Positions 10,210-56,641 of a stretch of DNA of 64,000 bases are shown one piece after another. Source of the DNA: Bacteroidota bacterium (GTDB taxonomy: Bacteria > Bacteroidota > Bacteroidia > JABDFU01); assembly GCA_013286385.1 (NCBI GenBank), contig JABDFU010000002.1:20575-84574 (forward strand). Reading direction: 5' to 3'. Made by a program: the position numbers and the translations under genes. The notes under the pieces are model-generated. The model was given only the letters and a program-made list of their open reading frames with translations, did no database searches and was not told the origin of the DNA. Numbering within the stretch: position 1 is the stretch's first letter; each line of letters begins with the position of its first letter.

Positions 10210-10216
10210 TTCAGTA

Positions 10217-32277: not shown

Positions 32278-32285
32278 TAATTTTG
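32278..32285 (+). promoter_or_regulatory. candidate -7 box (TAatTTTG) for the hydrolase gene
   Basis: taattttg lies 26 nt upstream of the TTG at 32311 and 35 nt upstream of the GTG at 32320. Confidence 0.35.
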
Positions 32286-32310
32286 GCGACAACAGCTTAA
32301 ATTTAAGATT

Positions 32311-35221: not shown

Positions 35222-35229
35222 TATATTTG
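35222..35229 (+). promoter_or_regulatory. candidate -7 box (TAtaTTTG) for sensor 2
   Basis: tatatttg lies 43 nt upstream of the ATG at 35272. Its 3' part lies inside the first copy of a 19-nt direct repeat. Confidence 0.35.
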
Positions 35230-35271
35230 GCTGGCTTTCCAATTGTATTTGGCCGGCTTTCCAAGAGGCTT

Positions 35272-38200: not shown

Positions 38201-38610
38201 TGGACATCGCCCTCTGCGTTTTTGATGCCGGAAAAAATCAGATCCGCTATGCAGGGGCCTACCGCCCTCTTTATCTTTTCAGTGATGCGTATCCTGAAAA
38301 ACTAAAAAAAATAAACGGTGATAAATTTCCGGTAGGAGGGGCCCAGTTCGGAGAGGAGCAATCCTTTACAGAGCATATCCTTCAGCTTAACAAAGGAGAC
38401 ATGATTTACCTGTTTACAGATGGTTATTCTGATCAGTTTGGAGGAGAAAAGGGCAGGAAGTTTATGTTGAAACAGCTTACGGATTTACTGGGTACATGCT
38501 GGCATCATCCTGCAAAGGAACAACAGCGCATTCTGGAAGAATCGTTTGCGGACTGGAAAAAATCAAACGACCAGGTCGATGATGTTCTGATCGCGGGTAT
38601 ACGTGTTTAA
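35272..38610 (+). CDS. sensor protein paralog: periplasmic propeller repeats + Y_Y_Y, TM segment, coiled coil, PP2C/SpoIIE phosphatase; about 1112 aa
   Basis: Same architecture as 23043..26204. TM segment LAYFFFVLAMLVSTWGF. PP2C motifs SGDFYWF, DCTGHGVPGAFMSM, DGMDIAL, TDGYSDQFGG. The track ORF begins at the TTG at 35227; I prefer the ATG at 35272 (MKGIPNLF..). Confidence 0.85.
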   Translation: MKGIPNLFCKTRRLGISLLLIQLSVVQHVSVGQNVPAGQNSSVAQKLNVKLRHITSEQGLSQSMVNCILQDHRGFMWFGTQDGLNRYDGNKIKVYSADPDNPQSIAGNFVSCLLEDNQGRIWIGSENNGISIYDPRTDNFIRLLSEEANKSSLSDNSIKNLCLGRDTKIWVATAKGLNAIDLNTLDVQRYFIGSSEKPEIITNEIYLIVEHPAEQKLWVITPLGIYSFDKQTARFTRLSLSDRELGKINSATVDNAGHIYINTNLKGIKMLDVQNGLIKEDQFAQLRYKKGDVFQITSASRNNEGVYYYGTDKKGILLLDSKGNYREISSGDQPGNLLSDKIHCIYFDPSGYMWVGTDLGVDFLQAGKLKFKTITTQDFETGALGSNDIMSVLKDGNRLLLGTSSKGLSVIDLVSGKALELPKGIPYGSENGVLSILKNAEDSYWLGTWGGGLVKVDLKNKTFRNFKASNSILSGQNITCMTKEGGKLWIGTLEEGLFLLDERSETFSKYTVNNGLSSNSIYFLGLDKNGELWIGTVAGGFDVLNTRTKKIRVYKHENSSKHSLSSNTVNYVYHDDNGIAWIATDNGLNRFDPGSGSFLSYYKKDGLPNNYIYSILPDERGNLWMSTNKGLSKFNPFVENTDGSAFTNYGPDDGLQGEEFNQGAYYTASDGQLYFGGLNGISVFYPERLTSSSHIPPVYITSYKRFNKEVKLDSSVLVKRHIGVSYKDNSFSFEFTALDFDDPGRNKYSWKMEGLQRDWSPPGIRNIAEYPELSPGEYTFRVRASNSDGEWNTTGTSIRISVYPPWYKTKLAYFFFVLAMLVSTWGFSQYRTLRVALQKKALERMVLDRTIQLADKNRDITSSIEYARKIQDAILPPLSDIHKAFSDSFIFYKPRDIVSGDFYWFYEKGDKKIIAIVDCTGHGVPGAFMSMIGHNLLNQVVIEKGIFSAAEILNQLRKGIQAALKQGNSGIGSKDGMDIALCVFDAGKNQIRYAGAYRPLYLFSDAYPEKLKKINGDKFPVGGAQFGEEQSFTEHILQLNKGDMIYLFTDGYSDQFGGEKGRKFMLKQLTDLLGTCWHHPAKEQQRILEESFADWKKSNDQVDDVLIAGIRV

Positions 38611-38623: not shown

Positions 38624-40561
38624 TTAGGGCGTGCTTAGTTTTTTAAGCAGAAGCCCTTGTTGTGCAACCAAGGCTTCCAGTTCTTCAATTTTCTTTTGTT
38701 GTTCCTTCACTGCTTCAACCAATACGGGTGTGATCTGGGCATAGTCAATTCTAAGAAGGTTATCTCCGGGAGCCTCTTGAACGGCTTCTGGCATGACTTT
38801 CTGAACTTCCTGTGCTATGAATCCGAAATACGTGCGGTCATCCATTGTCATTCCTTCTCTGGCGGTTTTTTCAAGATCCCAGTTGTACGTCACGGCCTGC
38901 AGGGACTTTACTTTATCCAGTGCATTTGAAACGCAGGTAATATTTTTTTTGTACCGTCCGTCCGATGCGCTCCAGACTCCACCTGTGCAGGATGTATTTC
39001 CGTTAACCGCCAAAAGATAGCCCGGACTGGTGGTTCCGATACCCACATTGCCCGAAGATTTTAACACAGATACTGCTTCTATCACTCCGTTGGTGGTGGA
39101 ATTGGGAACAAATATACCTGCACGTTCAGAAGAAAGACCATCGTCCGTTGCTCCGAATTGCACATAGGTGCCTGCTGCCATTCCTGACCAGGTTCTGATT
39201 TGCAGTCCGGTCGCATTTCCACCACCTCCGGCTCCTCCCTGAATCAGCATACTTGAAGCAGTAGTTGTCGAGTTGTACAATTCAAGCATGTTGGATGGGC
39301 TTGTTGTTCCAATACCTACATTCCCGTTACTGGCAATCGTCATTCTGGCTGCTACATAGCCCGTGCTGCCGGCCGGAGTTGTGTAAAAGCCCATGTATGT
39401 TTCAGCATTGGTCGAACTCCAGTTGCTTCCGGCCGTCATTTGAATGGATCCTCCGAATTGGTTAGCTGCGGTCCCGTAACCCCCACCGTCTAATATCAAA
39501 AGGTTATCTCCGGCCTGAGTTGCCGATGGGGAAGCCTTGCTTCCTCTTATTGCATAACCTGTAATTTCTCCCCCATCGTTACCGCCGGAACCTGAATAGG
39601 CGCGTAAGGAAATTTGCGCGTTCAAAGAGCCTGCATTCTGATCAGCCTCCATAATCATCATGGCATAATTTGGAGCGGCCAGACCGGTCCAATTCGAATT
39701 GTAAATATGGAGGTCGGCCTGGGGTTCCGTAATTCCAATCCCGACATTACCACCGAAATAGTTGATCTGATTTCCTGCACAGTAAACCCCATAGGCGGTT
39801 GTTGCATTTAACGAAAGATCGGTAACATAGATTCCGTAGGCATTCAGCAAATGGCCTGATCCCGTAGCGGTCACGTAATCTCCGTAGGCAGTTGACAGGG
39901 AGCCTTCGAACAGGGTATAGGTTCCGTACCCGGTTGAACTCGCCGTGGAGTTACCGGTACCAATTGTATTGGATGTACCGTATATAGTGCTGGCTGTCTG
40001 ATGCGACCAGGAAACATCCAATGAGTTTAAGGTACCATACAACGAGTTGACCGTACTGAAGGTGCAACAGCTGTTAACCTGATTGTAAACGCCCGCTACC
40101 GTTCCGATTGTGTTATTCGATGCGAATGCAATAACGTTGTGCAGGCCATCGTAAAAACCGGTATTGTCATTGGCCGGAGGTACGGTACCAATATTATTCT
40201 GAATTACATCATTGATGCCGCCGGTAACGGTTGGACCCGGGAAAAATCCAATATTCACTGCCGGTGTCCCGTTTGCAGGGGAGTAGGATATGGTCAAAGG
40301 GGAAGTTATTCCGCCCGGAGCACCTACTCCTATGCCAACGAACCCCTGAACGGTTAAGCCATTTGCCGGGGCAGCATATACGCCTGCATAGCCAGTCCCT
40401 ACAGTTATACCGCCATTCACATCAAGCGTACTTTTAGGTACGAACTGAGCTGGCCCGATTCCGACAGATTGAGAAAAGGCTTCCCCGGCTCCGTCCCAAA
40501 ATAGCGGAAGGAAGAGCAATGCGGCAAGAAATTTTGGAACGGAGGGTTTTTCGGAGTACAT
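38624..40561 (-). CDS. tail-fibre domain protein with C-terminal peptidase S74 intramolecular chaperone (self-cleaving) domain, signal peptide, 645 aa
   Basis: C-terminal 113 aa: SDGRYKKNITCVSNALDKVKSLQAVTYNWD...YFGFIAQEVQKVMPEAV...coiled coil. Repeated GNVGIGTTSP.. motifs. N-terminus LFLPLFWDGAGEAFSQSVGIG. Confidence 0.8.
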   Translation of the reverse strand: MYSEKPSVPKFLAALLFLPLFWDGAGEAFSQSVGIGPAQFVPKSTLDVNGGITVGTGYAGVYAAPANGLTVQGFVGIGVGAPGGITSPLTISYSPANGTPAVNIGFFPGPTVTGGINDVIQNNIGTVPPANDNTGFYDGLHNVIAFASNNTIGTVAGVYNQVNSCCTFSTVNSLYGTLNSLDVSWSHQTASTIYGTSNTIGTGNSTASSTGYGTYTLFEGSLSTAYGDYVTATGSGHLLNAYGIYVTDLSLNATTAYGVYCAGNQINYFGGNVGIGITEPQADLHIYNSNWTGLAAPNYAMMIMEADQNAGSLNAQISLRAYSGSGGNDGGEITGYAIRGSKASPSATQAGDNLLILDGGGYGTAANQFGGSIQMTAGSNWSSTNAETYMGFYTTPAGSTGYVAARMTIASNGNVGIGTTSPSNMLELYNSTTTASSMLIQGGAGGGGNATGLQIRTWSGMAAGTYVQFGATDDGLSSERAGIFVPNSTTNGVIEAVSVLKSSGNVGIGTTSPGYLLAVNGNTSCTGGVWSASDGRYKKNITCVSNALDKVKSLQAVTYNWDLEKTAREGMTMDDRTYFGFIAQEVQKVMPEAVQEAPGDNLLRIDYAQITPVLVEAVKEQQKKIEELEALVAQQGLLLKKLSTP

Positions 40562-40625
40562 GTGACTAGGTTTTAGTTCGCGGTTCGTTTTACGTAAAGC
40601 GGAAGCCTAAAGTTTGTAAAAAAAT

Positions 40626-40656
40626 AAGCACGGGTTGCAGAGCCCGTGCTTTTTTA
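40626..40656. terminator. rho-independent terminator hairpin with U-tracts on both strands
   Basis: Stem aagcacggg / cccgtgctt with loop ttgcagag. TTTTT follows on the plus strand, and a run of 7 A precedes it (T7 on the minus strand). It lies 35 nt downstream of the S8 peptidase stop. Confidence 0.6.
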
Positions 40657-40690
40657 AAGATAAAATCTCAGGTAGAGGAAAATCCGGTGT

Positions 40691-43096
40691 TTAACGTTCC
40701 AGTACGATTTTTCTGATTTCGGTTCCCTTGCCTGTAGTGCTTTGTATGTAATAAACACCGGTAGCTTCTCTGCTAAGATTTACGACTACCGATCCTCCGT
40801 GCAGATCTGAGTTGCCCGCTTTTGCCACCAAAGCTCCCCATTCATTGTAAACCGAAATGCTGACCGGTTCATTGAACCCCGGAGGATACAGGATATTAAC
40901 TTCTCCGGTTGAAGGATTGGGGAAAACAGTCAGTGTAGTTTTGCCGGCTGACCCGGCAATTCCGGTAGCGCTGCCATGGCACAGAATCGGAGCGATGGCC
41001 TCTGCCGTTCGGAAGTTGGTCCACACTGCAGAGTCGTTTGCCCAAAGCCCCTGATACCTCATCCAGGCCCTATTGGGTGTTACTTCTCCGCTTATGGTAC
41101 AGGCAATAGCGATCGTATCCGCCGGTGAATTTGTCGTGCTGAACTGAATGCCCAGGTAATAGGAACCTGTAACGTTTACCGGGGAGTCGAAGTTAATGAA
41201 ATTCCACTCATCTACTTTCAGGGTATTGATCTTAACCTCTTTATTGGCGAGGGTATTGGAGGGATATCCGTTTGCATTGTCCCAGATGGATACCTGTACA
41301 ACGTCTCCCGAACTGCCGGCAAAGTTCTTTACAAATAAAACCCCGGCTCCTGTGATATCGTAGCCGGAAGGAGGAGGGCTTGAAAAATAATCGCAATTCG
41401 CTTCGTCTCCTAAGTTATTTGAGCCTAAAACATATCCCCAGTTACCCTTTCCTTCCGAATTCAGGTAAATGGTCAAGGTATCTTTGTTGACAAAGTTGGC
41501 GATGGTATCGCACTCATTTGTCAAACTGCCTGCCACTGTAATGTAACAGGTCTTCGTAACAGGACTGGAGCCTATGTTGTTTGTGGCTGTCAAACTGACT
41601 GCATAGCATCCTTTTGTGTTGTATACAATTCCTGAAGGATTCTGTACAGCCGAACTTGTAGTGGCCGCTCCGGTAAAAGTCCAGGACCAGGAAGTCGGGT
41701 TATTGGTCGACAAGTCGGTGAAGTTTATGCTTTGCCCCGTTTTTATTGTTACCTGGTTGGCTACAAAGTTTGTCACGGGAGCAGAACCCGCAATTCCTGC
41801 CACACACTGAAGCGCGGCCTGGGCATTTATTAATCCGGCTCCGACATTTCCTGAGTTTGTTCCGATTGAACTGATATTGGTACAACTGCTGGTCAGGCAA
41901 CTGGTCAGCTGAGCAGGTGTCAGCGTGGGGTTCAGTGAAAGCATTAATCCTGCAAGACCCGCAACCATAGGGGTTGCCATAGAAGTTCCCGAAAGGCAAT
42001 CGTAGTAATTTACATTATTGCCATTGACACATCCCGCTGTGCCCGTGTGATTGGTAATGGTACTGAGGATGTTCTCTCCGGGTGCACAAAGCGTTATCCA
42101 GCTTCCGTAATCGGAAAAGCCTGAAAGTGCATTCGTTGCTCCGGTTGAGGCTACAGCTATAACATGGGTATAAGCTGCAGGATAGATCATGGTCGTATTT
42201 CCGTTATTTCCTGCTGCCGCAACGATAAGGACGCCCTTGTTATAGGCATAATTAACCACGTCCTGCTCGTATGCTGAAGAGTTCGATCCGCCCCAGGAGC
42301 AACTGATGACTCTCGCACCCGAATCTACGGCGTAAATGATCGCATCCCAACCCACATCGATGGCCTCTGTGTTGGACGCGGTGTCGTATGTAGCTTTAAT
42401 AGCCATTATCGTGATGCCAAATCCGATTGACGAAACCCCGGTCGAATTGTTTGTACCTGCTCCGATCAGTCCGGCCGTATGGGTTCCGTGGTCCCAGTTT
42501 GAATTTTGAAAAGGGGGGTTGGGATTGTTGTCGTTGTCGGCCACATCCCAGGATTTGGAAGATATCTGGGCAGAGAGGTCAGGGTGGCTAATCAGAATTG
42601 CACCGTCCACATCTGCAACAACTACAGATGGGTTTCCTTTACTTATATCCCAGGCTGCTGCTGCATTGATTTGAGGCAAATGCCACTGATACGTGTAATA
42701 GGGATCATTTGGAGTTAAAAACTGGTAACGCAGGTATTTCTTTTCAGCATATTTTATAAATGAGTTTCTGCCCAGCTCTGCAATCAGCGAATCGATCATG
42801 CTGAAATTGTTGAACTGAATCTCATATACATTGCTCAAATGAGCGTCGGAAATTTTCGGATGCTTGCGGATAACGTTTGTAATCGCATATTTTCCGCTGA
42901 TCTGAGAAAGGAAAGGGGTGCCGTTGATGTTTACCACACCATTTACATCAGCGGGAATCTGCACAATTGCGTTTTCCAGAATCTGAAAAACCACCCTTCC
43001 GTTCTGGTAATTTTGAATTTCCGTTAAAGCTTTTGCTGAATCAGTGGTCAGCAGCACTAAAGAAGCGATAAATCCCACCAGTAATTTTCTTTTCAT
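40691..43096 (-). CDS. S8 (subtilisin) family serine peptidase with PKD-like module and type A T9SS sorting domain, 801 aa
   Basis: HGTHTAGLIGAG (His), GTSMATPMVAGLAGL (Ser), AAAGNNGN (oxyanion Asn), VVVADVDGAI (Asp region). PKD-like NFTDLSTNNPTSWSWTF. C-terminus VFPNPSTGEVNILY...YYIQSTTGKGTEIRKIVLER. Confidence 0.9.
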   Translation of the reverse strand: MKRKLLVGFIASLVLLTTDSAKALTEIQNYQNGRVVFQILENAIVQIPADVNGVVNINGTPFLSQISGKYAITNVIRKHPKISDAHLSNVYEIQFNNFSMIDSLIAELGRNSFIKYAEKKYLRYQFLTPNDPYYTYQWHLPQINAAAAWDISKGNPSVVVADVDGAILISHPDLSAQISSKSWDVADNDNNPNPPFQNSNWDHGTHTAGLIGAGTNNSTGVSSIGFGITIMAIKATYDTASNTEAIDVGWDAIIYAVDSGARVISCSWGGSNSSAYEQDVVNYAYNKGVLIVAAAGNNGNTTMIYPAAYTHVIAVASTGATNALSGFSDYGSWITLCAPGENILSTITNHTGTAGCVNGNNVNYYDCLSGTSMATPMVAGLAGLMLSLNPTLTPAQLTSCLTSSCTNISSIGTNSGNVGAGLINAQAALQCVAGIAGSAPVTNFVANQVTIKTGQSINFTDLSTNNPTSWSWTFTGAATTSSAVQNPSGIVYNTKGCYAVSLTATNNIGSSPVTKTCYITVAGSLTNECDTIANFVNKDTLTIYLNSEGKGNWGYVLGSNNLGDEANCDYFSSPPPSGYDITGAGVLFVKNFAGSSGDVVQVSIWDNANGYPSNTLANKEVKINTLKVDEWNFINFDSPVNVTGSYYLGIQFSTTNSPADTIAIACTISGEVTPNRAWMRYQGLWANDSAVWTNFRTAEAIAPILCHGSATGIAGSAGKTTLTVFPNPSTGEVNILYPPGFNEPVSISVYNEWGALVAKAGNSDLHGGSVVVNLSREATGVYYIQSTTGKGTEIRKIVLER

Positions 43097-43204
43097 TTTC
43101 GTCTTTTTTTTAATTAATAGCCTTGTTTGCCTTAATCCAACTAAAAAATGGACTACTAATGAAGGTAGTAAAAATCTTTGCGAATAACCAACGAATTTAT
43201 TGCT

Positions 43205-44419
43205 TCAATCTTCCTGAACGATTTTTTGAACCGAAGGGACCCCGTTGATCAGGCTGTGAATGAAGTAAACACCTCTGTTTGACACGGTCAGGGTATACAG
43301 GTAATTTCCGGCGCTCAGGTTTTTGTTCTCGACAGCTTGCACAAGCTGTCCAAGAGCGTTGTAAACAGAAATCTGCACCAGGGCATTTTCCTGCAATTTC
43401 AGGCTCAGGTTGCTGCTGGTGTTGAACGGATTCGGGTAAACGCTTACGGCAGCCGGATTCGAATGTTCTTCAATTCCGGTACTGATATTGGTAATGTAAA
43501 CTCCGCTTCCGTTTGAACCCGCATAGAGGTCAGAGCCGATTGCAGCCAGCGAAGTGATGTTTGCGGTGGTCATTCCTCCGTTATAAGCAGACCAGCTGGT
43601 CCCGTTATTGGCGGACATATAAACTCCGGAGCCATCCGTGGCAGCATAGATGTTGCCACCTGAGGAAAGCATAACGTACACATAACCTCCTCCTCCGATT
43701 CCTGTATTGATTGCAGACCAGGAAACTCCGTTGTTCGATGACATGAATATTCCGCTGCCCCAGGTAACGGCATACAGATAGTTTCCGGACGCATAGAGTT
43801 GTGTTAAATTATTTCCGCCGGTATTCAGGGAATCTGATCCGCTTCCGCTTGCAACGGTCCAGTTGCTGCCATTGTTGGTTGACATAAAAACCAGACCATT
43901 TTCAGTTCCGGCATATAGGTTTTTTCCGGATACCGCAAGGGACACTACATCAAGGCTGGTCAAACCGGTGTTCACCGTCTTCCAGGAAGTTCCGTTGTTG
44001 GTAGACATAAAAACCCCGCTGAAGGTTGCTGCAAACAGATCGCTGCCGATCAGCGCAAGCGAATAAACCCCGGTATTTGTAAGGCCGCTATTTTCAGCTG
44101 TCCAGGTGGTTCCGTAATTGCTGGAGAGAAAAACCCCTCCGCTTTGTGTTGCGGCAAAGAGCAAGGTATCTGATACGGCAAGGGCCAGAACGGAAGTATA
44201 GGCTGTAAGGCCGCTGTTGATCGCAGTCCAGACCGTTCCGCTGTTTGTGGTTACAAACAGGCCTGAACCTGCGTCGGTTGCTGCATAAACATTACTTTTA
44301 ACGGAAGTAATGGCGGTAACAATACCAGTTGAAACGCTTCCGGTTGTTTTGGTCCATTGGGCCGTTGCAAACTGAGTGGCAACTAAAAGGCTGAGGGAAA
44401 TAAGTACGATTCTTTTCAT
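43205..44419 (-). CDS. 6-7-bladed BNR/Ycf48-like propeller protein with type A T9SS sorting domain, 404 aa
   Basis: Six clear units of about 42 aa, GvF.StNnGtsW..vNtGL...v.sLa..g..lyA, plus a short partial seventh. C-terminus VYPNPFNTSSNLSL...GVYFIHSLINGVPSVQKIVQED. Confidence 0.75.
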   Translation of the reverse strand: MKRIVLISLSLLVATQFATAQWTKTTGSVSTGIVTAITSVKSNVYAATDAGSGLFVTTNSGTVWTAINSGLTAYTSVLALAVSDTLLFAATQSGGVFLSSNYGTTWTAENSGLTNTGVYSLALIGSDLFAATFSGVFMSTNNGTSWKTVNTGLTSLDVVSLAVSGKNLYAGTENGLVFMSTNNGSNWTVASGSGSDSLNTGGNNLTQLYASGNYLYAVTWGSGIFMSSNNGVSWSAINTGIGGGGYVYVMLSSGGNIYAATDGSGVYMSANNGTSWSAYNGGMTTANITSLAAIGSDLYAGSNGSGVYITNISTGIEEHSNPAAVSVYPNPFNTSSNLSLKLQENALVQISVYNALGQLVQAVENKNLSAGNYLYTLTVSNRGVYFIHSLINGVPSVQKIVQED

Positions 44420-44512
44420 GCCGCCAAATTAAGATTATTTTGGATTCCGGGGCTGAATTTTTTAGGCTGAATTCGGGCAAAGCTTAAATGTCGGAAGTTA
44501 CGCAGTGTTTCC

Positions 44513-47500
44513 CTACTTAAGCAGGGTGACATCCCCGATATAGGTGTGATAGATGTCAAAAACGTCGGTTAACTCAACCTGCCAGACATAAACATCCTGC
44601 TGGGCGACAGAACTTCCGTAATTGGCTCTTCCGTCCCAGCCTATGCTCAGGCTATTGGTTTCAAAAATCAGATTTCCCCAACGGTCGAAAATGTCCATTT
44701 TGTATTTCTTGATATAGGTACCGACCCCGTTAAAAGTGTCGTTGAGGCCATCTCCGTTAGGGGTAAAGGCATTGGGAATATAAAAGGTGAACTGCGGGTA
44801 TACCACCAGGCAGTTTTCTGCGGAATCCTTGCATCCGTAAAGGTTCGTTACCAGCTGCCAGACGCAGTACGTCCCGGTGTCCTTATAGGTGTGCCGGGGG
44901 TTTTGAACATAATTCATTGAATCAATTTCGGAACCATCACCGAAATTCCATTTCCAGGTTACTGCACCTGAAGATTTGTCCTGAAAATTTACAAAAGGTG
45001 CCAGTACGCTGACCGAATTCGGGTTGCAGACAAATCCTGCAACCGGTAATCCCTCTATAGTGATGTAATCGGGTTTAGTGGCAACGTTCGTGCAGCCGTG
45101 CGAAGTCGTAACTCTAAGGGATACCGTGTATTTGCCCACCCTATCATAGCAATGTGAGGGATTTTGCTGGGTGGAAGTTTTACCGTCACCGAAGGTCCAG
45201 AGCCAGGATTGAATTGCAGAGCCGTCAGGAGAGGTGCTTTTATCCGTAAAGCTGACGCAAACATTCTGACAGGCACCCGTGTCGTTTGCCGTAAAATTCA
45301 CAATGGGATTTGAATAGACCGACACTGTAATCAGGGCTGAATCGGGAGGAGTGGTACATCCGTCGTTTACAACTACCGTATACGTTGTGGTTACTTCAGG
45401 CGCTACGGTGATCGTGTCCCCTGTATAGTTAAAGGGTTCCCAGGTAAAGGAATAGCTGCCCGAACCGCCGCTGGCGTATACAGACAGTTTAGCCGGGGAG
45501 CCCGGACAAATGCCCGCAGGAGAGGCCTGTGCCTGAATATCCAAAGGAGGCTTGACGTGGACGGTTATCGTAACCGGGTTTGAGGGACATCCGTTTTCAT
45601 CCGTTGCAATAACGGTGTAGGTAGTGGTGAGGGTCGGGTTGGGGCTGAAATTGGCTCCGGTAAACAATCCGTTATTCCAGGTAAAGGTATAAGCCGGAGT
45701 GCCTCCGGTAGCAGCTGCATTGAGGTGGGCGACCTGGCCTATGCAGATATTTGTGTCTCCTGAGGTAATCACAATCAGAACAGAGGGGGAGCTGATTTTA
45801 ACCCGGGCTGTATCCTTGCAGCCAAACTGATCGCTGACGGTGACGGTATAGGTGCCTGTACATAAATCGCTGATAGCAGAAGTGTCCTGCACCGGTACGG
45901 TATTCCAGCTATAGGAATAAGGGCCGACGCCTCCGCTGGCTGTGGCGGAGGCAAGGCCGTTGCAGTTTCCGAAGCAGGTTACATTGCTGAAGCTGGTAAT
46001 GGCGGCTTTTGGTCCGCCGGCATTGGCCACGCTAAGTTTCAGGGAATCCCGGCATCCGTTGTTATCTGTTACCAAGACAGCGTAGTTGCCCGGATAAGCG
46101 CTGTCAATTAAACTTGCTGTATCATTGCCTGGTTTCCAAAGGTAGCTGTAGGGAGGAGTGGCTCCGCTTGCCGTTACGGTGAGTACCCCGTCGTTCTGAT
46201 TGCAATGCGCCGTGACACTGGTTCCGCTTAGCGAAAGTGCAGTGGGTTCCGTAATAACGATGCTGGTTGTATTCGTACAGCCGTTTGCGTCTGTCACCTG
46301 TACCGAGTAGGTGCCGATGCAAAGACTATCAATACTTAAATTGTGGCTGCCGGTCGACCACTCTACCGTGTATGGTTTTATACCGGCAGAAGGGATGATT
46401 ACCGCTTGTCCGTTACAGGATTTGTAACATCCAACCGGAAAACCTGCTGAGGCAATTGCTACCTGTGTGGCCTGGCTTACAATTGCAGAATCCTGGATGC
46501 TGCAGTTTTTTGAATCGGTTATAGTCACAGTGTAAACTCCGGAAGTAAGGTTCGGGATTAAATTGGCTGAGCTTCCGGTATTCCAGGAGTAACTATAGCC
46601 GCCGTTTCCGCCGTAAGCGCTGATCTGAATGCTCCCCGTGCCTTTGCTGAAACAAAGCACATTCACAATTTTCATACTGTCCGTAATGGCCGGTGGCTGT
46701 GTGATGACTACCGTATCTGCAAGGCTGCAACCCGAAAGGTCTGTAATGGTCAGGGTATAGGATCCGGCCAGAAGATAGTTGACAGAGCCGCCTGTAAGGT
46801 TTCCCGGCATCCAGGAATAGGCATATCCTCCTGTTCCTCCTCCCGCTATGGCGTTGGCCGATCCCGATGAATCCTGATAGCAGGTCAGGTTTGAAACGGC
46901 TATGGTTGAAGTCAGCGGAGATGGCTGGGTCAGTGTTGCGCTGGCACTGTCCAGGCAACCATTGGCGTCTGTGACATAGACCGAGTAGCTCCCTGCTGCC
47001 AGTTTCACAGCGGCAGAATCTGATCCGGCAATTGTCTTCCAGCTGTAGCTGTAAAGCGGCGTTCCTCCGCTTGCCTGAGCAGTTGCTGATCCTGTTTTGG
47101 CTCCGGCGCAGCTGACATTGACCTGCGAAATACTTGTATTCAGTTGTGTAGGTTGAACCAGCACAATGGTATCAGAAAATGTACAACCCAGGGAGTCGAA
47201 CACATTCAAGGTGTACGAACCGGCCGGCTGGCCTGTCATACTATCGGTGAAATTACTCATGGGCTGCCAGGAATAAATATAAGGGGCAGTGGCCCCTGAA
47301 ACTGTAACATAGGCGCTTCCGTTTTTGTCCGAAAAACACCGGGGATTATTTTGCAAGACTGTAGCAGCGAAGGCGGCAGGCTGAGTCAGCACAGCTGAAC
47401 TGTCAAATGTGCAGCCATTGTTATCGGTAATGGTCAGGCTGTAGGTTCCTGCCGGCAGGTTGGCATTGGTTGAATCGTTCACTGAAACCGGTGACCAGGA

Positions 47501-50500: not shown

Positions 50501-53500
50501 GTGCACGTAAGCTTTTCCTGTAGCCAGCCCACAGTCTGTATTGACAAGGCTTGTGCCAAGCGAAAGAAGAGTTGGGTTGATCACATGTGTAGAGTCCGAA
50601 ACGGTGCATCCATTCGCATCTGTAACGGTGAGGGTATAGGTTCCCGCGGACAGGTTGCCTGCTGTTGAAGTTGCACCGCCACCAGGCATCCAGGAATAGG
50701 TGTAGGCACCGGCTCCTCCGCTTACGCTTGCAAAGGCCGAGCCGTCCGTACCTCCGTTGCAACTCGGGCTTACAGAGTCTGCGCGTATCAAAATCTGCGT
50801 GGGCAGATTCAGCAGTACCGAGTCCTTCAGGCTGCAATTGTTGCTATCGCTGACCAGTACATAATACTGGCCCTCGTTTAACCCACTGATGGCACTGCTT
50901 CCCTGACCTGTAAAAGCTGATGATCCCGAACTTTTTTCTGACCAGGTATAGGAATAAGGCAGGCTGCCTCCACTGACCGAAATCTGTGCAGCGCCGTTGG
51001 CTGCATTGAAACAACTCAGTGCGGTTCCTGTTATCGTTGCTGCCAAAGCAGCAGGCTGGCTTACACTGGCAGTGGCGGTATTGACACAGCCATTCTGGTC
51101 ATGAACAGTCACGGTATAGGTTCCGGGTGCCAGTCCCGACAAGGTATCCTGGGCAGCTCCTGAGAAACTCCAGGAATAGGAGTAAGGTGCGGCAGCGCCT
51201 GAAGCATTCACCCAGACTTTTGCGTTTGAAAAATTAAAACAGCTCACATTAACGGAGTCGGTTTTCAGACTTACAACCGGATAAGCCAGATTGATCTGTC
51301 CCAGCGTATCGCAGCCCGAAGTTGTATTGGTAACCTTAACCTGGTAGAGCCCCGGGGCCAATCCTGTAATGGTGTCGCTTGTACTTCCGGTAGGTGTCCA
51401 TACGACGCTGAAAGGAGGAGGTCCTCCGGTAATCGTCACATAAGCCTCCCCGTTATCCAGGTAACAGGTCGGATTCTTTCCGTTCACAGCAATCCTGAAA
51501 GGCGGAGGTTCGGTAATGGTAATGGATTTGGTAATGGTGCAGCCATTGGCATCCGTTACAGTCAGCGTATACGTTCCGGGACCCAGTCCCCCTATTGTAT
51601 CGCCGGGACCACCGGCCGGAGCCCAGTTATACGTATAAGCCGGAGTGCCTCCTCCTGCCCTGGCTCCAATACCTCCGTTGTAAGCTCCAATGCAGCTGAC
51701 ATTGACTGAATCCAGGGTAAGGGTTAACGGAGGTGGTTGCAGGACAGTTACGGACTGGGTCGTCGTGCAACCGTTCGCATCCGAAACACTGACTACATAC
51801 GTACCTGCCGGGATGCCTGTTTCATTCGATCCGTTCCCTCCTCCGGGTGTCCAGTTGTAGGTGTAGGCAGGTGTTCCGCCGTTTACATGGGCGGTCACCG
51901 AACCGGTGTTCTGGCCATTACAGCCCAGATTGGTATGCGTGGGTGCAGCTGTCAGCGGATTGGGCTGGGTCACATTGATGACTACAGAAGCTGTGCAGCC
52001 GGGGTTTACGGCGTCGGAAACAGTTACGGTATACGTGCCGGCAGCCAATCCGGAGAGGGATGAAGAGACTCCTCCTGCGGGAGCCCAGTTGTAATTGTAG
52101 CTTCCCGTTCCTCCAGTGGCAACAACACTTGCTGTGCCGTTCCCGGAGCCGTTACAGCTAAGGTCAGTTTTCGATCCGGTCAGACTGAGCGGGTCTGCCA
52201 CTGCGATCGTAACGGTCTGAAAAACTGTACAGCCGTTGGCATCGGTTACAGTTACTACATAGGAGCCTGGTGCCAGTCCCGATTCAGATGAGGTGACTCC
52301 TCCGCTGCTCCAGTTGTAGGTATAAGGCAGCGTTCCTCCGGCGGGGGTAACCGTAGAGCTTCCGTTGGAAACTCCGCAGGAGGCGTTCGTTGCAGATTGT
52401 GTAAAACTCAGCTGCGCGGGCTGTGTAATTGAAACCGACAGGGTAGAGGAGCACCCGTTTGCATCCTTAATTAAAACCGTATAGGTATTTGCTGCAAGTC
52501 CGCTGGCTGTTGCAGCAGCTCCGCCGCCGGGTGACCAGGAATAGGTAAGTGTGCCGGTTCCACCTGATGCGCTGACCGAAGCCGATCCGTTTGTCAATCC
52601 GAAGCAGCTGACATTTTTCTGTGCGTTCACGGAGACATTGAGTGCCGAGCCCTGCGTAATGTTGACTGCGGATGAACCCGTGCACCCATTCGCATCTGTT
52701 ACAGTCAGTGTGTAGCCTCCAACCCCAAGTCCGGAAAGGGAAGGGGAGGTCGTGCCGGTGCTCCAGCTATAGGTGTAAGCCGGAGTTCCTCCAAGGGAAG
52801 CAGATGAAGCCGTTCCGTCATTGCTTCCGTTACAGGTAATGTTTACGGCAGTTACATTGGGGTTAAGGGGCGGTGGTTGCGTAATCGTAATTATTTCAGA
52901 GCTTGAACAGGCTGCATTCGCTGCGTCACTGACCGTCACCGAATACGTTCCGGCAGACAGCCCTGAGGCCAGTGGCCCGGCGCCTCCTGAAGGGGCCCAG
53001 GTATAGTTGTAGGCTCCCGAACCTCCGCTTGCTGCAATGCTGATGGATCCGCTGGAAGCCCCGTTGCAATTGATATTGGCGGCGACCGGGGTAACGGATA
53101 AGGGATCTGAAACCGCAATCACCACAGTCGCTGTCTGCGAACAGAGGTTGGCGTCGTTCACGACAACGGTATACGTTCCGGGAGCGAGGCTGCTAACTGC
53201 AGCCGTAGTTGCGGAAGTTGTCCAGGCATAGACGTACGGAGAAAGGCCTCCGCCGGGGGTGACCGTTGCTGTTCCGTTATCAGAACCGCAACTTGCATTG
53301 GTGCCGGTCATGCTCAGACTTAAATTAGGAGGCTGGGTCAGGCTGACAGTTGAAGTCGCTGTGCAACCTCCGGCATCTGTTACTGAAACGGTATAGGTAT
53401 TGGCTCCCAATCCGCCCGCTGTTGCAGCGTTCCCACCCGAAGGGGACCAGTTATAGGTATACGGCCCTGTTCCACCGCCGGCCGTAACGACGGCCTGGCC

Positions 53501-56500
53501 GCTTGTCTGACCGAAACACTTGATGTTGGTTCCTGAAGTGTTTGCTGTCACAAGTGATCCGGGGTTTACCGTTGCGGCTGCTGTTTTTGTGCAGCCGTTT
53601 GCATCTGTGACTGTTACCGTGTATCCTCCGGGACTCAGACCAGAAATCGAACTGCTGCTGCCCGAATTCGACCACTGATAGGTATAGGGAGAAGTTCCTC
53701 CTGTTGAATTCACCGTCACGCTTCCATTGTCCGAACCCGAGCAGGTATTGCCAACGGTTGTCAGAGGGGCTGTCAGGACAGCGGGCTGTGTTATCACAGC
53801 CGTTGCGGCAGCTGAACAGGAAGGTGTACTATCGTCAATAACGGTAACCGTATATGTTCCCGGTGCCAATCCCGAAGCGACCGATGTTGTTCCGCCCGAA
53901 GGAGCCCAGTTGAAGCTGTACCCTCCGCTGCCTCCTGTAATATTCAGGACAACTTTGCCGTTTGCCGCTCCGTTACAGGAATTATCTGTTACAGTTGGTG
54001 TAACCGACAAGGGGTTCGAAAGTATTACGGTAAGCGCATCTGTCATCGTACAGCCATCCGCATCGGTAACAGTAACCGAAAATGTGCCCGGATTTAGCCC
54101 GCCCGAAACAGCGCTGGTGGCTGAATTCGACCAGAGGTAGGTGTAGGGTAACGTTCCGCCGGCGGGTGCCACGCTTACCGAACCGTTGGCCAAACCGCAG
54201 CCGGCATTAGCAGATGAGGGATTCAGCACCATAGCAGGAGGCTGGGTAATTGTGGAACTCGAAGCAGAGGTGCATCCGTTCACATCCGTAACCGTAACCG
54301 AATAGGTGCCCGGCGCTAAATTGCTTTCCGTAGCACCTGCGCCTCCACCCGGAGACCAGTTGTATGAATAGGCCGGAGTTCCGGCTGTTGCAGTAACGGC
54401 GACTGCTCCGTTATCGGCCCCAAAGCAACTGACGTTAGAAGGCGTGCTGGCAATGGCAACGGGAGGATTGTACAGATTTGTTTCTGCGACGGCCGTGGTA
54501 CTCGTACATCCTTTGCTGTCAGTGACGGTAACGGTATAGGTTCCTGCAGCAAGATTGCTTGCCGTAGCTGTTGTTCCTCCAGAGGGGGCCCAGTCATAGG
54601 TCAGCGGGGCGGTCCCGCCTACAGTCGTAATCGAAATTTTTCCATTCGAAAGTTCACAGGTCTCTTTGGTTATAACCGGTGTGTTTATGAAAATCGGAGG
54701 AGCTTCAGAAATGGTGACATTGGCATAATACTCACAGCCGTTCGCGTCCGTAAGTTTTATCGTAAATATTCCCGGGCCCAGGCCTGTTGCCGTTGCAGTT
54801 GTCTGTGCGGGCACTGTGTTCCAGGAATAAGTATAAGCTCCGGTTCCTCCCGAAGGAACCAAGGTTGCCGTTCCGTCATTTGTTCCGCTGCAACTACTGT
54901 TGGTAAAGCTTGTTGTTCCTCCAAGCTGGGTTGGCTGGGTAATTGCGATTACCGTTGATTCGCTGCAGCCACTGTTATCGGTTACGGTCAGGCTGTAATT
55001 GCCCGCGGTCAGGCCAAATATTGTATCATTGATGCTCAGACTCGGTTTCCAGGCATATACATACGGTGGTTTGCCTCCGTCAGGTGTTACCCATGCTTTT
55101 CCGTTATTCCCTCCGAAACAAGTAACGTTGTTGCCGGCAGTGCCCTTTATCACGGGCGGGGGCTGGGTAATGGTGATAGCCGAACTGGCTGTACAACCCC
55201 TGGCATCGGTAACGGTTACCGAATACGTGCCTGCAGCCAACGAACTGATACCCGGTCCGGTCTGTCCACCCGACCAGAGGTAGGTATAGGCCGTTGTTCC
55301 TCCATTGGCACTGAGTGAAGCTGTGCCGTTAGGGACAGCATTGCAGTTTAAATTTGTTCCGGCTACAGAAACCGTCAGCAGAGGAGGTTGCGTAATGTTT
55401 ACGCTTACAGTTCTTGTGCAACCATTGGCATCGCTTACTGTTGCCGTATACGATCCGGCAGGCAGACCGCTTGCATTGGCACTGTTGCCTCCGACGGGTG
55501 TCCAGGAATAGGTATACGCTCCTGCGCCACCTCCCGCTGTAAGACTCGCTGTGCCTGTAGAAGTTCCAAAACAGGTAACATTTGCAGATGTTGCAGAAAC
55601 AGTAAGAAGCGGAGGTTGGGTAATCTGAACTGAACTGCTGGCTGTACAGCCTTCTGCATCTGTAACCGTAACGGTATAATTTCCGGCCCCGAGACCGCCC
55701 GGGTTAGCTATTGTCTGGGTCGTACCATTCCAGCTGTAGGTATAAGGGTTTGTTCCGCCTGATGTGTTTGTGCTTATGCTGCCGGTGGCGTTACCGTTGC
55801 AGAGCACATTGCCGGCAGTGGCTGAAATGCCCAGAACAGGAGGTTGGGTAATGACTGCTGAGGTTGTACCTGTGCAGCCTTTTGAATCGGTAACGGTAAG
55901 CGAATACGTCCCCGGGCCAATTCCTGTCAGGTTTGTATCCGTGCCCAGATTGCTCCAGCCGTAAGTGTACGGGCCTGTGCCGCCACTCACTGTACCCGAA
56001 ACGCTGCCATTCGAAAGCCCGAAGCAGCTGACATTTGCAGCCGTATTAGCAACGGTCAGTGCAGCATCAGCGACTATCGTTACAAAGGCTGTTTTTGTAC
56101 AGCCGTTCTGGTCTGTAACCTCCACTATATAAGCTCCGGCTTCCAGGCCTGTGGCCGTTTGTCCGGCAGAACCGCTGGTCCAGGAATAGGTGTAATTTCC
56201 GGTTCCCCCGGAGGGGTTGGCTGTAGCCGTTCCGTTAGCGCTGCCGGCGCAGGTTTCGGTTTGAGTTACCGAAACACCTATTGCAAGAGGTTGAGTGACC
56301 GAAACAGTAGCCGTGGCTGTGCAGCCCCCGCTATTGTCCATAACTGTTACCGTGTAGGTACCGGCGCTCAGTCCAGAAGAGGCCGAATCGAGCTCTGTAC
56401 CTGAATTCCAGCTGTAACTGTAGTTTCCGCTACCTCCTGAAACCAGAACCACAGTGTTTCCGTCAGCGCCCCCATTGCAGGAAACGGGGTTGGAGGAGGT

Positions 56501-56641
56501 TGTTAGATTAAGTGTACAAACAGGATACAGGGTTGAAATGAAGGCCGATGCTGAAGCAGATATAAATAAAGAAGCCCAGACCAACAGAGCGGCAGATCTG
56601 GCGTATTTCGAAAAAGCGCTTTGTTTAAAGGTAAGGTTCAC
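44513..56641 (-). CDS. giant cell-surface adhesin, 4042 aa: signal peptide, roughly four dozen SprB-type repeats, Ig-like and 2 PKD-like modules, type B T9SS sorting domain
   Basis: Uninterrupted 12.1-kb frame. GTG start, with signal-like KYARSAALLVWASLFISASASA. Repeat unit C.G..nG...v...GGt.pYtYsW.p.g.....l..L.aGtYtvtVtDanGC. C-terminus FTPNGDGLNDTF...IFDRWGNLIF...GWDG. Confidence 0.9.
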   Translation of the reverse strand: MNLTFKQSAFSKYARSAALLVWASLFISASASAFISTLYPVCTLNLTTSSNPVSCNGGADGNTVVLVSGGSGNYSYSWNSGTELDSASSGLSAGTYTVTVMDNSGGCTATATVSVTQPLAIGVSVTQTETCAGSANGTATANPSGGTGNYTYSWTSGSAGQTATGLEAGAYIVEVTDQNGCTKTAFVTIVADAALTVANTAANVSCFGLSNGSVSGTVSGGTGPYTYGWSNLGTDTNLTGIGPGTYSLTVTDSKGCTGTTSAVITQPPVLGISATAGNVLCNGNATGSISTNTSGGTNPYTYSWNGTTQTIANPGGLGAGNYTVTVTDAEGCTASSSVQITQPPLLTVSATSANVTCFGTSTGTASLTAGGGAGAYTYSWTPVGGNSANASGLPAGSYTATVSDANGCTRTVSVNITQPPLLTVSVAGTNLNCNAVPNGTASLSANGGTTAYTYLWSGGQTGPGISSLAAGTYSVTVTDARGCTASSAITITQPPPVIKGTAGNNVTCFGGNNGKAWVTPDGGKPPYVYAWKPSLSINDTIFGLTAGNYSLTVTDNSGCSESTVIAITQPTQLGGTTSFTNSSCSGTNDGTATLVPSGGTGAYTYSWNTVPAQTTATATGLGPGIFTIKLTDANGCEYYANVTISEAPPIFINTPVITKETCELSNGKISITTVGGTAPLTYDWAPSGGTTATASNLAAGTYTVTVTDSKGCTSTTAVAETNLYNPPVAIASTPSNVSCFGADNGAVAVTATAGTPAYSYNWSPGGGAGATESNLAPGTYSVTVTDVNGCTSASSSTITQPPAMVLNPSSANAGCGLANGSVSVAPAGGTLPYTYLWSNSATSAVSGGLNPGTFSVTVTDADGCTMTDALTVILSNPLSVTPTVTDNSCNGAANGKVVLNITGGSGGYSFNWAPSGGTTSVASGLAPGTYTVTVIDDSTPSCSAAATAVITQPAVLTAPLTTVGNTCSGSDNGSVTVNSTGGTSPYTYQWSNSGSSSSISGLSPGGYTVTVTDANGCTKTAAATVNPGSLVTANTSGTNIKCFGQTSGQAVVTAGGGTGPYTYNWSPSGGNAATAGGLGANTYTVSVTDAGGCTATSTVSLTQPPNLSLSMTGTNASCGSDNGTATVTPGGGLSPYVYAWTTSATTAAVSSLAPGTYTVVVNDANLCSQTATVVIAVSDPLSVTPVAANINCNGASSGSISIAASGGSGAYNYTWAPSGGAGPLASGLSAGTYSVTVSDAANAACSSSEIITITQPPPLNPNVTAVNITCNGSNDGTASSASLGGTPAYTYSWSTGTTSPSLSGLGVGGYTLTVTDANGCTGSSAVNITQGSALNVSVNAQKNVSCFGLTNGSASVSASGGTGTLTYSWSPGGGAAATASGLAANTYTVLIKDANGCSSTLSVSITQPAQLSFTQSATNASCGVSNGSSTVTPAGGTLPYTYNWSSGGVTSSESGLAPGSYVVTVTDANGCTVFQTVTIAVADPLSLTGSKTDLSCNGSGNGTASVVATGGTGSYNYNWAPAGGVSSSLSGLAAGTYTVTVSDAVNPGCTASVVINVTQPNPLTAAPTHTNLGCNGQNTGSVTAHVNGGTPAYTYNWTPGGGNGSNETGIPAGTYVVSVSDANGCTTTQSVTVLQPPPLTLTLDSVNVSCIGAYNGGIGARAGGGTPAYTYNWAPAGGPGDTIGGLGPGTYTLTVTDANGCTITKSITITEPPPFRIAVNGKNPTCYLDNGEAYVTITGGPPPFSVVWTPTGSTSDTITGLAPGLYQVKVTNTTSGCDTLGQINLAYPVVSLKTDSVNVSCFNFSNAKVWVNASGAAAPYSYSWSFSGAAQDTLSGLAPGTYTVTVHDQNGCVNTATASVSQPAALAATITGTALSCFNAANGAAQISVSGGSLPYSYTWSEKSSGSSAFTGQGSSAISGLNEGQYYVLVSDSNNCSLKDSVLLNLPTQILIRADSVSPSCNGGTDGSAFASVSGGAGAYTYSWMPGGGATSTAGNLSAGTYTLTVTDANGCTVSDSTHVINPTLLSLGTSLVNTDCGLATGKAYVHASGSNGSYTYQWAPVTGTADSLVNLSKGTYTVTVTDKKGCSAVDSVQISEPNPVALNSISRTNVLCNSAANGTATVVATGGSGTYVYSWSPGGYSSAAINGLSPSLYSVTVTDAANAACFVSDTIRITQPGLLVSTVNAVNINCFGNSNGTAGLVVSGGTNPYTYLWSNASTGNSLSDLSPATYSVTVTDANGCTSVSAAPITQPAAFVLKADSSDISCFGYGNGQVSISGSGGTGAYQFTWNPGLVLADTLKNLSPGTYTVNATDANGCSATRSISLTQPSGMNLTMNHTNTACGSDFGTAGVSVSGAVAPYTYLWSTGSSSAAISSLYKGTYFVTVTDNNGCTTKDSAKITEPNGIVITLTPQNISCNGLSNGSISASASGGSGSYRYSWTGGSTGSTISGLSPGTYYVKVTDAVNTFCSSMDSAVLTQPLALSAGISTRSLTCFGDSSGAIWISPVGGNEPYSYSWIPGSGTSDTLAHVAAGAYAVTVTDSKGCSISALGSVSQPSKISGTTGVKLASCGSSNGEAWATASGGTGSYTYSWSPVYSANDTIKGLLPGKEYVYITDANGCSTLDSASITLSNGITAAMSSVPVTCYGDVNGQASVTANGGSGVFTYNWAPGNNTNQSQVNLVPGMYTVTITDIHISGCILVDSVQVGQPEKVTVNLSVTKVACSGSNNYVVTAIPGGGTPGYFYTWSFAGTGQVESNLSPGTYIVEVTDTNGCDTAQIFSITPSSTPFIMPPVIQNPKCLLPNGSVSISIFGGVRPYAYAWSPSVSTDSVANNLSPGTYTVTVTDAFSCTDTRTLTLDNFALPPNVVATASPVSCPGGSNGMVTAVPNAGSLPYAYSWSPSGGTGITTSLVAAGTYTITVTDGQSCTATASATVTQPGPFSILVNRQNVSCFGGASGTASAFAGGGTPAYTYSWSTGSTVSSISNLAKGQYYFTLTDANSCTALDTVTITEPLLLQGQLHVVNNVFCNKGSNGSISVTPAGGTLPYTYSWSPVSVNDSTNANLPAGTYSLTITDNNGCTFDSSAVLTQPAAFAATVLQNNPRCFSDKNGSAYVTVSGATAPYIYSWQPMSNFTDSMTGQPAGSYTLNVFDSLGCTFSDTIVLVQPTQLNTSISQVNVSCAGAKTGSATAQASGGTPLYSYSWKTIAGSDSAAVKLAAGSYSVYVTDANGCLDSASATLTQPSPLTSTIAVSNLTCYQDSSGSANAIAGGGTGGYAYSWMPGNLTGGSVNYLLAGSYTLTITDLSGCSLADTVVITQPPAITDSMKIVNVLCFSKGTGSIQISAYGGNGGYSYSWNTGSSANLIPNLTSGVYTVTITDSKNCSIQDSAIVSQATQVAIASAGFPVGCYKSCNGQAVIIPSAGIKPYTVEWSTGSHNLSIDSLCIGTYSVQVTDANGCTNTTSIVITEPTALSLSGTSVTAHCNQNDGVLTVTASGATPPYSYLWKPGNDTASLIDSAYPGNYAVLVTDNNGCRDSLKLSVANAGGPKAAITSFSNVTCFGNCNGLASATASGGVGPYSYSWNTVPVQDTSAISDLCTGTYTVTVSDQFGCKDTARVKISSPSVLIVITSGDTNICIGQVAHLNAAATGGTPAYTFTWNNGLFTGANFSPNPTLTTTYTVIATDENGCPSNPVTITVHVKPPLDIQAQASPAGICPGSPAKLSVYASGGSGSYSFTWEPFNYTGDTITVAPEVTTTYTVVVNDGCTTPPDSALITVSVYSNPIVNFTANDTGACQNVCVSFTDKSTSPDGSAIQSWLWTFGDGKTSTQQNPSHCYDRVGKYTVSLRVTTSHGCTNVATKPDYITIEGLPVAGFVCNPNSVSVLAPFVNFQDKSSGAVTWKWNFGDGSEIDSMNYVQNPRHTYKDTGTYCVWQLVTNLYGCKDSAENCLVVYPQFTFYIPNAFTPNGDGLNDTFNGVGTYIKKYKMDIFDRWGNLIFETNSLSIGWDGRANYGSSVAQQDVYVWQVELTDVFDIYHTYIGDVTLLK
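45800..56520 (-). repeat. tandem array of about 45-48 SprB-type coding repeats (estimated from a ~76-aa period over ~3600 aa)
   Basis: The periodic motif is visible through nearly the whole translation. The count is an estimate, not an exact tally. Confidence 0.7.

Follow-up and report, generated by a model that had tools for sequence, protein, structure and literature searches.

Do four consecutive minus-strand genes in a 64,000-nucleotide stretch of Bacteroidota DNA (assembly GCA_013286385.1, contig JABDFU010000002.1, positions 20,575 to 84,574; hereafter the window) encode a single surface-fibre apparatus? The original prediction, made from the sequence alone, proposed that they do. A giant SprB-repeat adhesin, a propeller, a subtilisin and a phage-derived fibre were to form one filament or adhesin system dependent on a type IX secretion system (T9SS), matured by the protease, with the fibre as anchor or tip. 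We refer to these genes as locus 2 and to a giant adhesin paired with a second fibre elsewhere in the window as locus 1. The four open reading frames (ORFs) were found exactly where predicted. With confidence a little above even, however, we read locus 2 as two units of T9SS-related surface-protein genes, a rearranged member of a modular family of SprB-adhesin cassettes rather than a four-part machine. The features of locus 2 are as follows (nt, nucleotides; aa, amino acids).

44513..56641, minus strand, SprB-like giant adhesin gene (4042 aa, GTG start; 93 nt to the next gene downstream)
43205..44419, minus strand, beta-propeller gene (404 aa; 108 nt to the next gene downstream)
40691..43096, minus strand, subtilisin gene (801 aa; 129 nt to the next gene downstream)
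40626..40651, minus strand, intrinsic terminator hairpin between the subtilisin stop and the fibre start
38624..40561, minus strand, fibre gene (645 aa; last of the four locus-2 genes)

All four proteins begin with signal-peptide-like sequences. The terminator hairpin in the 129-nt subtilisin/fibre gap, AAAAAAGCACGGG-loop-CCCGTGCTTATTTTTTT, has a 9-bp stem with 6 GC pairs, a flanking A6 run and a T7 run after it, and looks bidirectional. Its folding free energy of -15.8 kcal/mol (z -5.54) was equalled by 0 of 200 shuffles. The giant/propeller and propeller/subtilisin gaps were unstructured (z +1.9 and +0.3). Since the terminator was found only ahead of the fibre gene, the likely units are giant, propeller and subtilisin in one and the fibre alone in the other; the giant and the propeller, 93 unstructured nt apart, are probably on one transcript. 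Unit 1 would be a probable operon for a SprB-like type-B adhesin, a propeller and a thermitase-like subtilisin that ends at the terminator. Unit 2 would be a single gene for a trimeric fibre, resembling the mosaic adhesive trimer (MAT) fibres of Bdellovibrio, with a self-cleaving S74 chaperone.

The domains predicted for the four proteins were all borne out by Pfam and NCBIfam. In the giant, 44 SprB stretches (PF13573, E=0; 49 by a local hidden Markov model, HMM) span aa ~68-3750, and Pfam found two PKD domains. Its CTD (C-terminal domain) of type B, at aa 3955-4032, scored 49.1 bits with PF13585 (CHU_C; cutoff 27) and 49.4 with TIGR04131 (cutoff 35). The giant resembles the SprB/type-B cargo of Flavobacterium johnsoniae in its SprB repeats, its Sec signal and its C-terminal type-B (CHU_C/TIGR04131) domain. 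Unlike F. johnsoniae SprB, it precedes a propeller and a subtilisin with type-A CTDs, has no sprC/sprD/sprF-like neighbour and has no PorP/SprF gene within 64 kb (no match to PF11751 among window ORFs of at least 150 aa). Since the window holds no such gene, the giant would count among the 'orphan' type-B cargoes, which share a shuttle whose gene lies elsewhere (PMC12618676). Type-B cargo has its anchors in PorP-like proteins, in many cases jointly with PorE-like ones (PMC9143113).

The propeller protein has BNR/Sortilin repeats and a type-A CTD at aa 327-401 (Por_Secre_tail/TIGR04183, 34.4/36.9 bits; cutoffs 27/23). Six or seven blades had been predicted; the AlphaFold2 (AF2) model (45-sequence alignment; predicted local distance difference test score, pLDDT, 88.8) has seven, followed by the CTD beta-sandwich. 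Its nearest folds (the BT4663 sensor, PorZ, Ycf48 and GH74) are generic ligand-binding propellers, so the fold assigns no function. No orthologue was found, the best match having 40% identity over 80% of the query and no match exceeding 48%. The subtilisin comprises a Peptidase_S8 domain (9e-44), a PKD domain and a type-A CTD (41.1/43.5 bits with the same two models and cutoffs). It aligned with thermitase (1THM) at E 1.4e-49, which placed D164, H203, N297 and S372 in canonical motifs and upheld the claim that its catalytic His, Ser and Asn motifs are intact. No I9 match was obtained in Pfam at E<=0.01; ~100 aa precede the start of the mature-domain alignment (aa 128). Four full-length orthologues share 46-57% identity with the subtilisin, P0123 being the closest.

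The 645-aa fibre ends in an S74 chaperone region (aa 533-645) containing Peptidase_S74 (PF13884, 63.3 bits, cutoff 22; 3e-17, aa 533-594). Its Ser-Lys dyad is intact (SDGRYK, S533/K538), and trimerisation and autocleavage of the fibre are predicted. The protein further contains an N-terminal module (N-module, aa ~30-266) and three GNVGIG shaft motifs (271, 413 and 504), with no T9SS CTD. Its S74 domain aligns to the MYRF ICA domain and to a phage long-tail-fibre tip (7dc3, 6f45). The AF2 monomer was confident only at aa ~350-430 and in the S74 domain (pLDDT >90 over aa 540-645). Foldseek matched this model at probability 1.0 to T5 pb1 plus chaperone, MYRF ICA and four MAT fibres, with low TM-scores because the query was a monomer; 4uw8 and 3gw6 were among the matches by fold. 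An exhaustive HMMER search of 1.84 billion representative proteins recovered the whole N-module from only 5 representatives; aa 30-85 of the fibre (window ~40307-40474, minus strand) proved to be a shaft repeat of wide occurrence, of which long proteins contain up to 14 copies in tandem. Among phage genomes, 1359 records matched the C-terminal part of the fibre only, and neither phage genomes nor IMG/VR gave a match to the N-module. The description of the fibre as phage-derived thus fits its C-terminal shaft/S74 part but not its N-module.

The pairing of a giant with a member of the same fibre family at locus 1 had been taken as an argument against coincidence. Locus 1 contains the following genes.

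3589..10224, minus strand, giant adhesin gene (2211 aa: DUF7948, SBBP propeller, 13-15 SprB repeats and a type-B CTD, CHU_C)
10217..11386, minus strand, fibre gene (389 aa; 8 nt shared with the start of the giant gene)
11635..13161, plus strand, BT2802/RusR-like putative regulator gene, here called u508 (508 aa; divergent from the locus-1 fibre gene)

The 389-aa protein is a true, if distant, relative of the 645-aa fibre (27% identity, E 9e-9) with a signal peptide and the N-module, but it has no S74 domain and no Pfam or NCBIfam match. An alignment of both window fibres with four database relatives contained 39 invariant columns. All six proteins consist of a signal peptide, then [SA]QS[VI]GIG..QF.P, then a ~260-aa module ending ...YGxY...NYFxGN. 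Past the module, P0002-P0004 go straight into S74; the 645-aa fibre is longer by ~250 aa, which include two additional GNVGIGTTSP shaft motifs; S74 is missing from the 389-aa fibre and P0009. The 8-nt overlap with the giant gene suggests translational coupling, and the DUF7948-headed giant would be the canonical partner type of N-module fibres.

The original prediction had overlooked u508, which has no counterpart at locus 2. The protein is all-helical and cytoplasmic, without a signal peptide, and matches NCBIfam BT_2802_fam over its whole length (E 2e-53), although its score of 182 bits is far below the cutoff of 550. A strict Bacteroidota -7 box (TATCTTTG) lies 33 nt before its ATG, and Pfam detected no DNA-binding domain. 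BT2802 (RusR) is a putative regulator of the Bacteroides thetaiotaomicron ribose utilisation locus (bioRxiv 10.1101/574913). Like BT2802, u508 lies immediately upstream of the genes that it presumably controls (bioRxiv 10.1101/574913); unlike BT2802, it is tied to adhesin cassettes and not to a polysaccharide utilisation locus. We regard u508 as a candidate dedicated regulator of such cassettes. A PorP/SprF-like outer-membrane anchor had also been considered for u508 and was rejected on the grounds that the protein is all-helical, BT2802-like and without a signal peptide.

To determine what accompanies N-module fibres, their neighbourhoods were taken from JGI and Logan contigs. A metagenome scan with the N-module yielded 4 loci, so the resulting statistics rest on few lineages. 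A SprB/type-B giant adjoins every recovered N-module fibre (loci L002/L086, with a 28-nt gap; L084, with two fibres; L085; L087; and window locus 1), and a DUF7948 head was present on each of these giants for which the contig covers the N-terminus. No subtilisin or propeller gene was found beside the fibre in these loci; around P0002 (L084), the closest relative of the fibre, there is neither an S8 nor a propeller gene. A divergent u508 homologue was present in every cassette locus (L084, L085, L086, L087, L091 and window locus 1).

A scan of a genome collection with the full fibre alignment returned mostly generic shaft+S74 fibres of other phyla and no close relatives. The 79 loci that matched the shaft/S74 part included 32 from Patescibacteria/Saccharibacteria and 15 from Bdellovibrionota; with 47 of the 79 in these groups, the fibre type is not specific to T9SS-bearing phyla. 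Nine loci were from Bacteroidota, and in five of these the S74 fibre gene is followed immediately by a ~370-aa type-B CTD gene (L014 and L015, from Roseivirga metagenome-assembled genomes; L034, L035 and L040, of Flammeovirgaceae type). Wherever a Bacteroidota genome locus had any CHU_C gene (5/5), that gene was the first one downstream of the fibre. A PorP/SprF gene (Pfam 5e-53, 3e-64) comes after the type-B gene, followed in Roseivirga by a gene for a PorE-like protein with PD40 and OmpA domains.

L014 7466-13967 and L015 7685-13991, Roseivirga operon: fibre, CHU_C, PorP/SprF, PD40+OmpA
L035 1-4772, Flammeovirgaceae-type locus: fibre, CHU_C, PorP/SprF

The Roseivirga fibres have a collagen-repeat shaft, yet they start with AQSVGIG..QF.P as the window fibres do. 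Their small CHU_C partners have only the CTD in common with the window giants, and no docking domain common to the two was detectable by sequence. Among all fetched ORFs, 8 of the 9 distinct fibres with a QSVGIG..QF.P start have a type-B gene within 2 kb, and 7 of the 9 within 600 nt.

The subtilisin was also found to keep company with SprB-type adhesins. Members of its ~800-aa orthologue group lie beside SprB/CHU_C genes in three of four cases (the window, L088 and L091).

L088 (JGI Ga0206820_1065): two SprB-CHU_C genes, S8 after a gap of 27 nt; fibre and propeller both absent
L091: divergent u508-like gene, S8, 70 nt, then a 2888-aa DUF7948-SprB-CHU_C giant
Ga0206957_1036 (JGI contig, 37.9 kb): three tandem cassettes, each with a u508-like gene pointing away, namely S8 then the 2888-aa giant, a 2651-aa giant, and an S74 fibre then a 2046-aa giant

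L088 is the closest relative with local synteny. A six-gene block of the window (28142-33180; LuxC-like, ferredoxin, unknown, MORN, thioredoxin reductase and esterase) is kept at L088 6336-11324 with 60-84% protein identity, and the S8+SprB/CHU_C unit lies on the other side of this block than in the window. This identity marks L088 as a relative in which the adhesin genes have moved relative to the block, and the S8+SprB/CHU_C pair appears to have moved together through the rearrangement. L091 runs on into L002 as the tandem array on Ga0206957_1036, within which S8 and fibre are alternatives in one slot. Sortilin/BNR propeller domains or SprB repeats are fused into several subtilisin homologues (P0143, P0145, P0155, P0162, P0167, P0176, P0192, P0221; P0172, P0238). 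Such fusions are Rosetta-stone-type hints for S8-propeller and S8-SprB links, and for a possible S8-propeller link the Sortilin/BNR domains fused to some S8 homologues are the sole pointer.

The predicted linkage across genomes was therefore found in pairs: fibre with type-B gene and S8 with SprB/CHU_C gene both recur, but no other locus has all four gene types (0 of 10 informative loci: L002/L086, L084, L085, L087, L088, L090, L091, L014, L015 and L035). The recurrent unit appears to be a SprB-repeat/type-B adhesin with one accessory, either an N-module fibre or a subtilisin, and usually a divergent BT2802/RusR-like regulator. Locus 1 has all the marks of such a cassette, with a divergent BT2802-like gene, an accessory abutting the giant and a DUF7948 head. 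Locus 2, which lacks the regulator and the DUF7948 head and has its fibre two genes away from the giant, is at best a rearranged derivative. These neighbourhoods make it plausible that fibre and protease are functionally tied to SprB-type adhesins.

How might these proteins reach and act on the cell surface? The giant would leave the cell through the T9SS and be retained at the surface by a PorP/SprF-type shuttle whose gene lies elsewhere, as for the orphan type-B cargoes of F. johnsoniae. Type-A cargoes pass via PorV and are released or linked to anionic lipopolysaccharide (A-LPS); the propeller and the protease would be exported through their type-A CTDs, likewise via PorV. With gene linkage as the only guide, the protease may trim or shed the adhesin, and the fibre may trimerise in the periplasm, have its chaperone cleaved off at S533 and gain or keep its place on the surface through association with a protein that has a type-B CTD, the variable C-terminal end of the fibre pointing outward. 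Because the locus-2 giant has no head domain, the partner of the fibre may be the DUF7948-headed giant of locus 1 and not the adjacent one. Of the roles considered for the fibre, that of an anchor is less likely than that of a distal passenger or tip, to judge from the analogous MAT and phage fibres and from the Roseivirga operon. A broader possibility, which we put forward tentatively, is that the CTD-less, Sec-signal MAT-like fibres of Bacteroidota are displayed by docking to a co-encoded type-B protein, be it a DUF7948-headed SprB giant or a small CHU_C adaptor kept in place by a PorP/SprF-PorE pair of its own, and that fibre and subtilisin are interchangeable accessories under RusR-like control in the lineage of the window.

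The MAT fibres of Bdellovibrio bacteriovorus are trimeric adhesins located on the cell surface, and they fall into subfamilies with and without S74 (Caulton et al. 2024, PMC10769870). The window fibres resemble them in the signal peptide, the long beta-rich trimeric shaft predicted here and the variable C-terminal end, and the S74 (SDxxxK) and non-S74 subfamilies are matched by the 645-aa and 389-aa proteins. The Foldseek matches of the 645-aa fibre were to Bd1334, Bd2133, Bd3182 and Bd2439 (8oml, 8ond, 8onc and 8onf; probability 1.0 for each). However, MAT fibres have a conserved N-terminal domain of ~130 aa after the signal peptide, whereas the window fibres start directly with the shaft repeat, followed by the ~180-aa region known from the 5 representatives mentioned above. 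Full-length fibres of Bdellovibrionota (L045, L052, L066 and L072) have N-termini unrelated to the window N-module, the shaft repeats alone being common. Coupling to genes for T9SS type-B cargo is likewise a feature of the window fibres and not of MAT fibres. With phage tail fibres and spikes (T5 pb1, K1F endosialidase, S16 gp37) and with MYRF ICA, the 645-aa fibre shares an S74 Ser-Lys dyad preceded by GNVGIG..P...L.V; unlike phage fibres, it is chromosomal, has a Sec signal, stands in no phage context and has an N-terminal 220 aa without phage counterpart. We found no paper in the literature that links S74 fibres to the T9SS.

The proposal of one dedicated T9SS-dependent filament apparatus, in which the components would be matured by the protease and the adjacent giant would have the S74 fibre built in as its anchor or tip, draws on the four same-strand exported proteins with their short gaps, on the recurrence of the fibre and S8 families each beside SprB/CHU_C genes and on the existence of S8-propeller fusion proteins. 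We consider it improbable. A terminator stands ahead of the fibre gene, the propeller is not conserved, and no second locus has the four genes; in the cassette array fibre and S8 alternate in one slot and never occur there together, and the adjacent giant has no DUF7948 head, which every fibre-adjacent giant with a visible N-terminus does have. A less ambitious explanation is coincidence, locus 2 being a hotspot of T9SS cargo and surface-protein genes without functional interdependence, brought about by cargo density and recombination among repeat-rich genes. The window is indeed dense in T9SS cargo, with 5 CTD proteins in 64 kb, so that finding exported proteins side by side is by itself weak evidence. 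Relatives differ in the arrangement of their cassettes, L090 and the distant S8 homologues are unlinked, and in a pattern scan terminator-like or promoter-like sites were not in excess over shuffles. We nevertheless judge coincidence rather unlikely, given the position of the CHU_C gene first downstream of the fibre in all five Bacteroidota genome loci that have one, the overlapping or <30-nt junctions (window locus 1, L002, L014 and L088) and the S8+SprB/CHU_C pair that stayed together through rearrangement.

It is also conceivable that the fibre is an autonomous MAT-like adhesin, exported and anchored independently of the T9SS and loosely co-located with SprB adhesins since both serve attachment. 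The abundance of shaft+S74 architecture in non-T9SS phyla (the Patescibacteria and Bdellovibrionota loci above), the fold matches to MAT fibres and the surface exposure of MAT fibres in Bdellovibrio, which is without a T9SS (PMC10769870), speak for such autonomy. It would, however, leave unexplained why fibre genes of Bacteroidota are coupled so tightly, and in a set orientation, to genes for type-B CTD and PorP/SprF proteins, and the window fibres are without the MAT N-terminal domain; we hold it to be about as improbable as the single apparatus. An S74 chaperone and the shaft motif are both characteristic of tail fibres in phages, and the many phage records matching the C-terminal part might suggest a prophage or tailocin remnant. 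The flanks of the fibre gene contain no phage genes (a PP2C sensor, a methyltransferase, peroxiredoxins and T9SS cargo), its GC content is like that of its neighbours, its product has a Sec signal peptide, and the N-module is absent from phage genomes and IMG/VR. We rejected this explanation, the chance of its being correct being negligible.

The cassette reading itself has to be set against several observations that weigh against it. Locus 2 departs from the pattern on every count: it has no regulator, its giant carries SprB repeats from its start in place of a DUF7948 head, and its fibre, two genes away, is the sole exception in the 8/9 census, the nearest CHU_C gene being 3.95 kb off behind two genes and a terminator. 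The division into two units has to allow for terminators that can be leaky; a sigma-70 promoter scan of the locus-2 gaps gave nothing above shuffled expectation, and a strict Bacteroidota TAnnTTTG box was found in none of them. The S8 orthologue at L090 has no adjacent SprB gene, and the more distant S8 homologues (L093, L094 and L095) have ordinary neighbourhoods with no adjoining SprB genes. The suggested functional links draw on gene neighbourhood in a few related metagenome contigs and two other Bacteroidota lineages, and paralogous cassettes are non-independent observations. The N-module has a pLDDT <50 in the AF2 monomer, so that no docking surface can be proposed. To our knowledge, no route is known by which a CTD-less protein crosses the outer membrane with the T9SS.

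The individual parts of locus 2 are of known kinds. The coupling of the fibre to genes for type-B cargo, PorP/SprF and PorE-like proteins offers a lead that can be tested, and the regulator-bearing cassette arrays offer another. T9SS cargo is now defined by a C-terminal sorting domain; if display by docking to a type-B protein is true, T9SS-dependent display would include a route by piggy-back or capture, and a kind of partner would be named for this fibre class. A recurrent operon of CTD-less fibre, type-B protein, PorP/SprF and PorE-like protein would suggest that the Bacteroidota surface can also be reached by a second, indirect path. The docking partner of MAT fibres was left open in Bdellovibrio (PMC10769870), and the fibre/type-B coupling would suggest a docking target for fibres of this type. 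The tandem cassette arrays look like a toolkit for switching between alternative adhesins, which would bear on how environmental Bacteroidota glide, attach to particles and form biofilms. The lesson from the four-gene idea is a modest one, in that the genes are real and the unit is not conserved.

Some further observations concern the composition and termini of these genes. A composition anomaly indicative of horizontal transfer was considered for locus 2 and rejected, the GC content of its genes (0.47-0.53) being near that of the window (0.46). At locus 1, the fibre gene (GC 0.43; GC at third codon positions 0.35) and the u508 gene (GC 0.36) are more AT-rich than the window and the adjacent giant gene (0.49). 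Gln follows the predicted signal-peptidase sites of the fibres (...AFS|QSVGIG and ...CLS|QSIGIG) and of the propeller (...ATA|QWTK). This fits the Bacteroidetes 'Q-rule', by which exported proteins carry an N-terminal pyroglutamate. Patescibacteria/Saccharibacteria and Bdellovibrionota, the main holders of shaft/S74 matches, live attached to or prey on cells. Type-A CTD-like tails were seen on contigs assigned to the 'Patescibacteria group' (L022 12275-15047 and L080 2692-3606); these may be misbinned Bacteroidota DNA or false positives of the small local HMM.

The original prediction had also noted a PP2C sensor abutting locus 2.

35227..38610, plus strand, PP2C sensor gene (convergent with the fibre gene, stops 13 nt apart)

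The sensor gene does adjoin the fibre gene, but it is convergent with it and has a paralogue within the window at 23043-26204 (minus strand), and so is not evidence for a dedicated regulator. Both paralogues encode sensor-phosphatases with Reg_prop, Y_Y_Y and SpoIIE(PP2C) domains inside the 64 kb. The gene at 23043-26204 lies directly downstream of a gene for a CarboxypepD_reg/type-A CTD protein (26210-28066).

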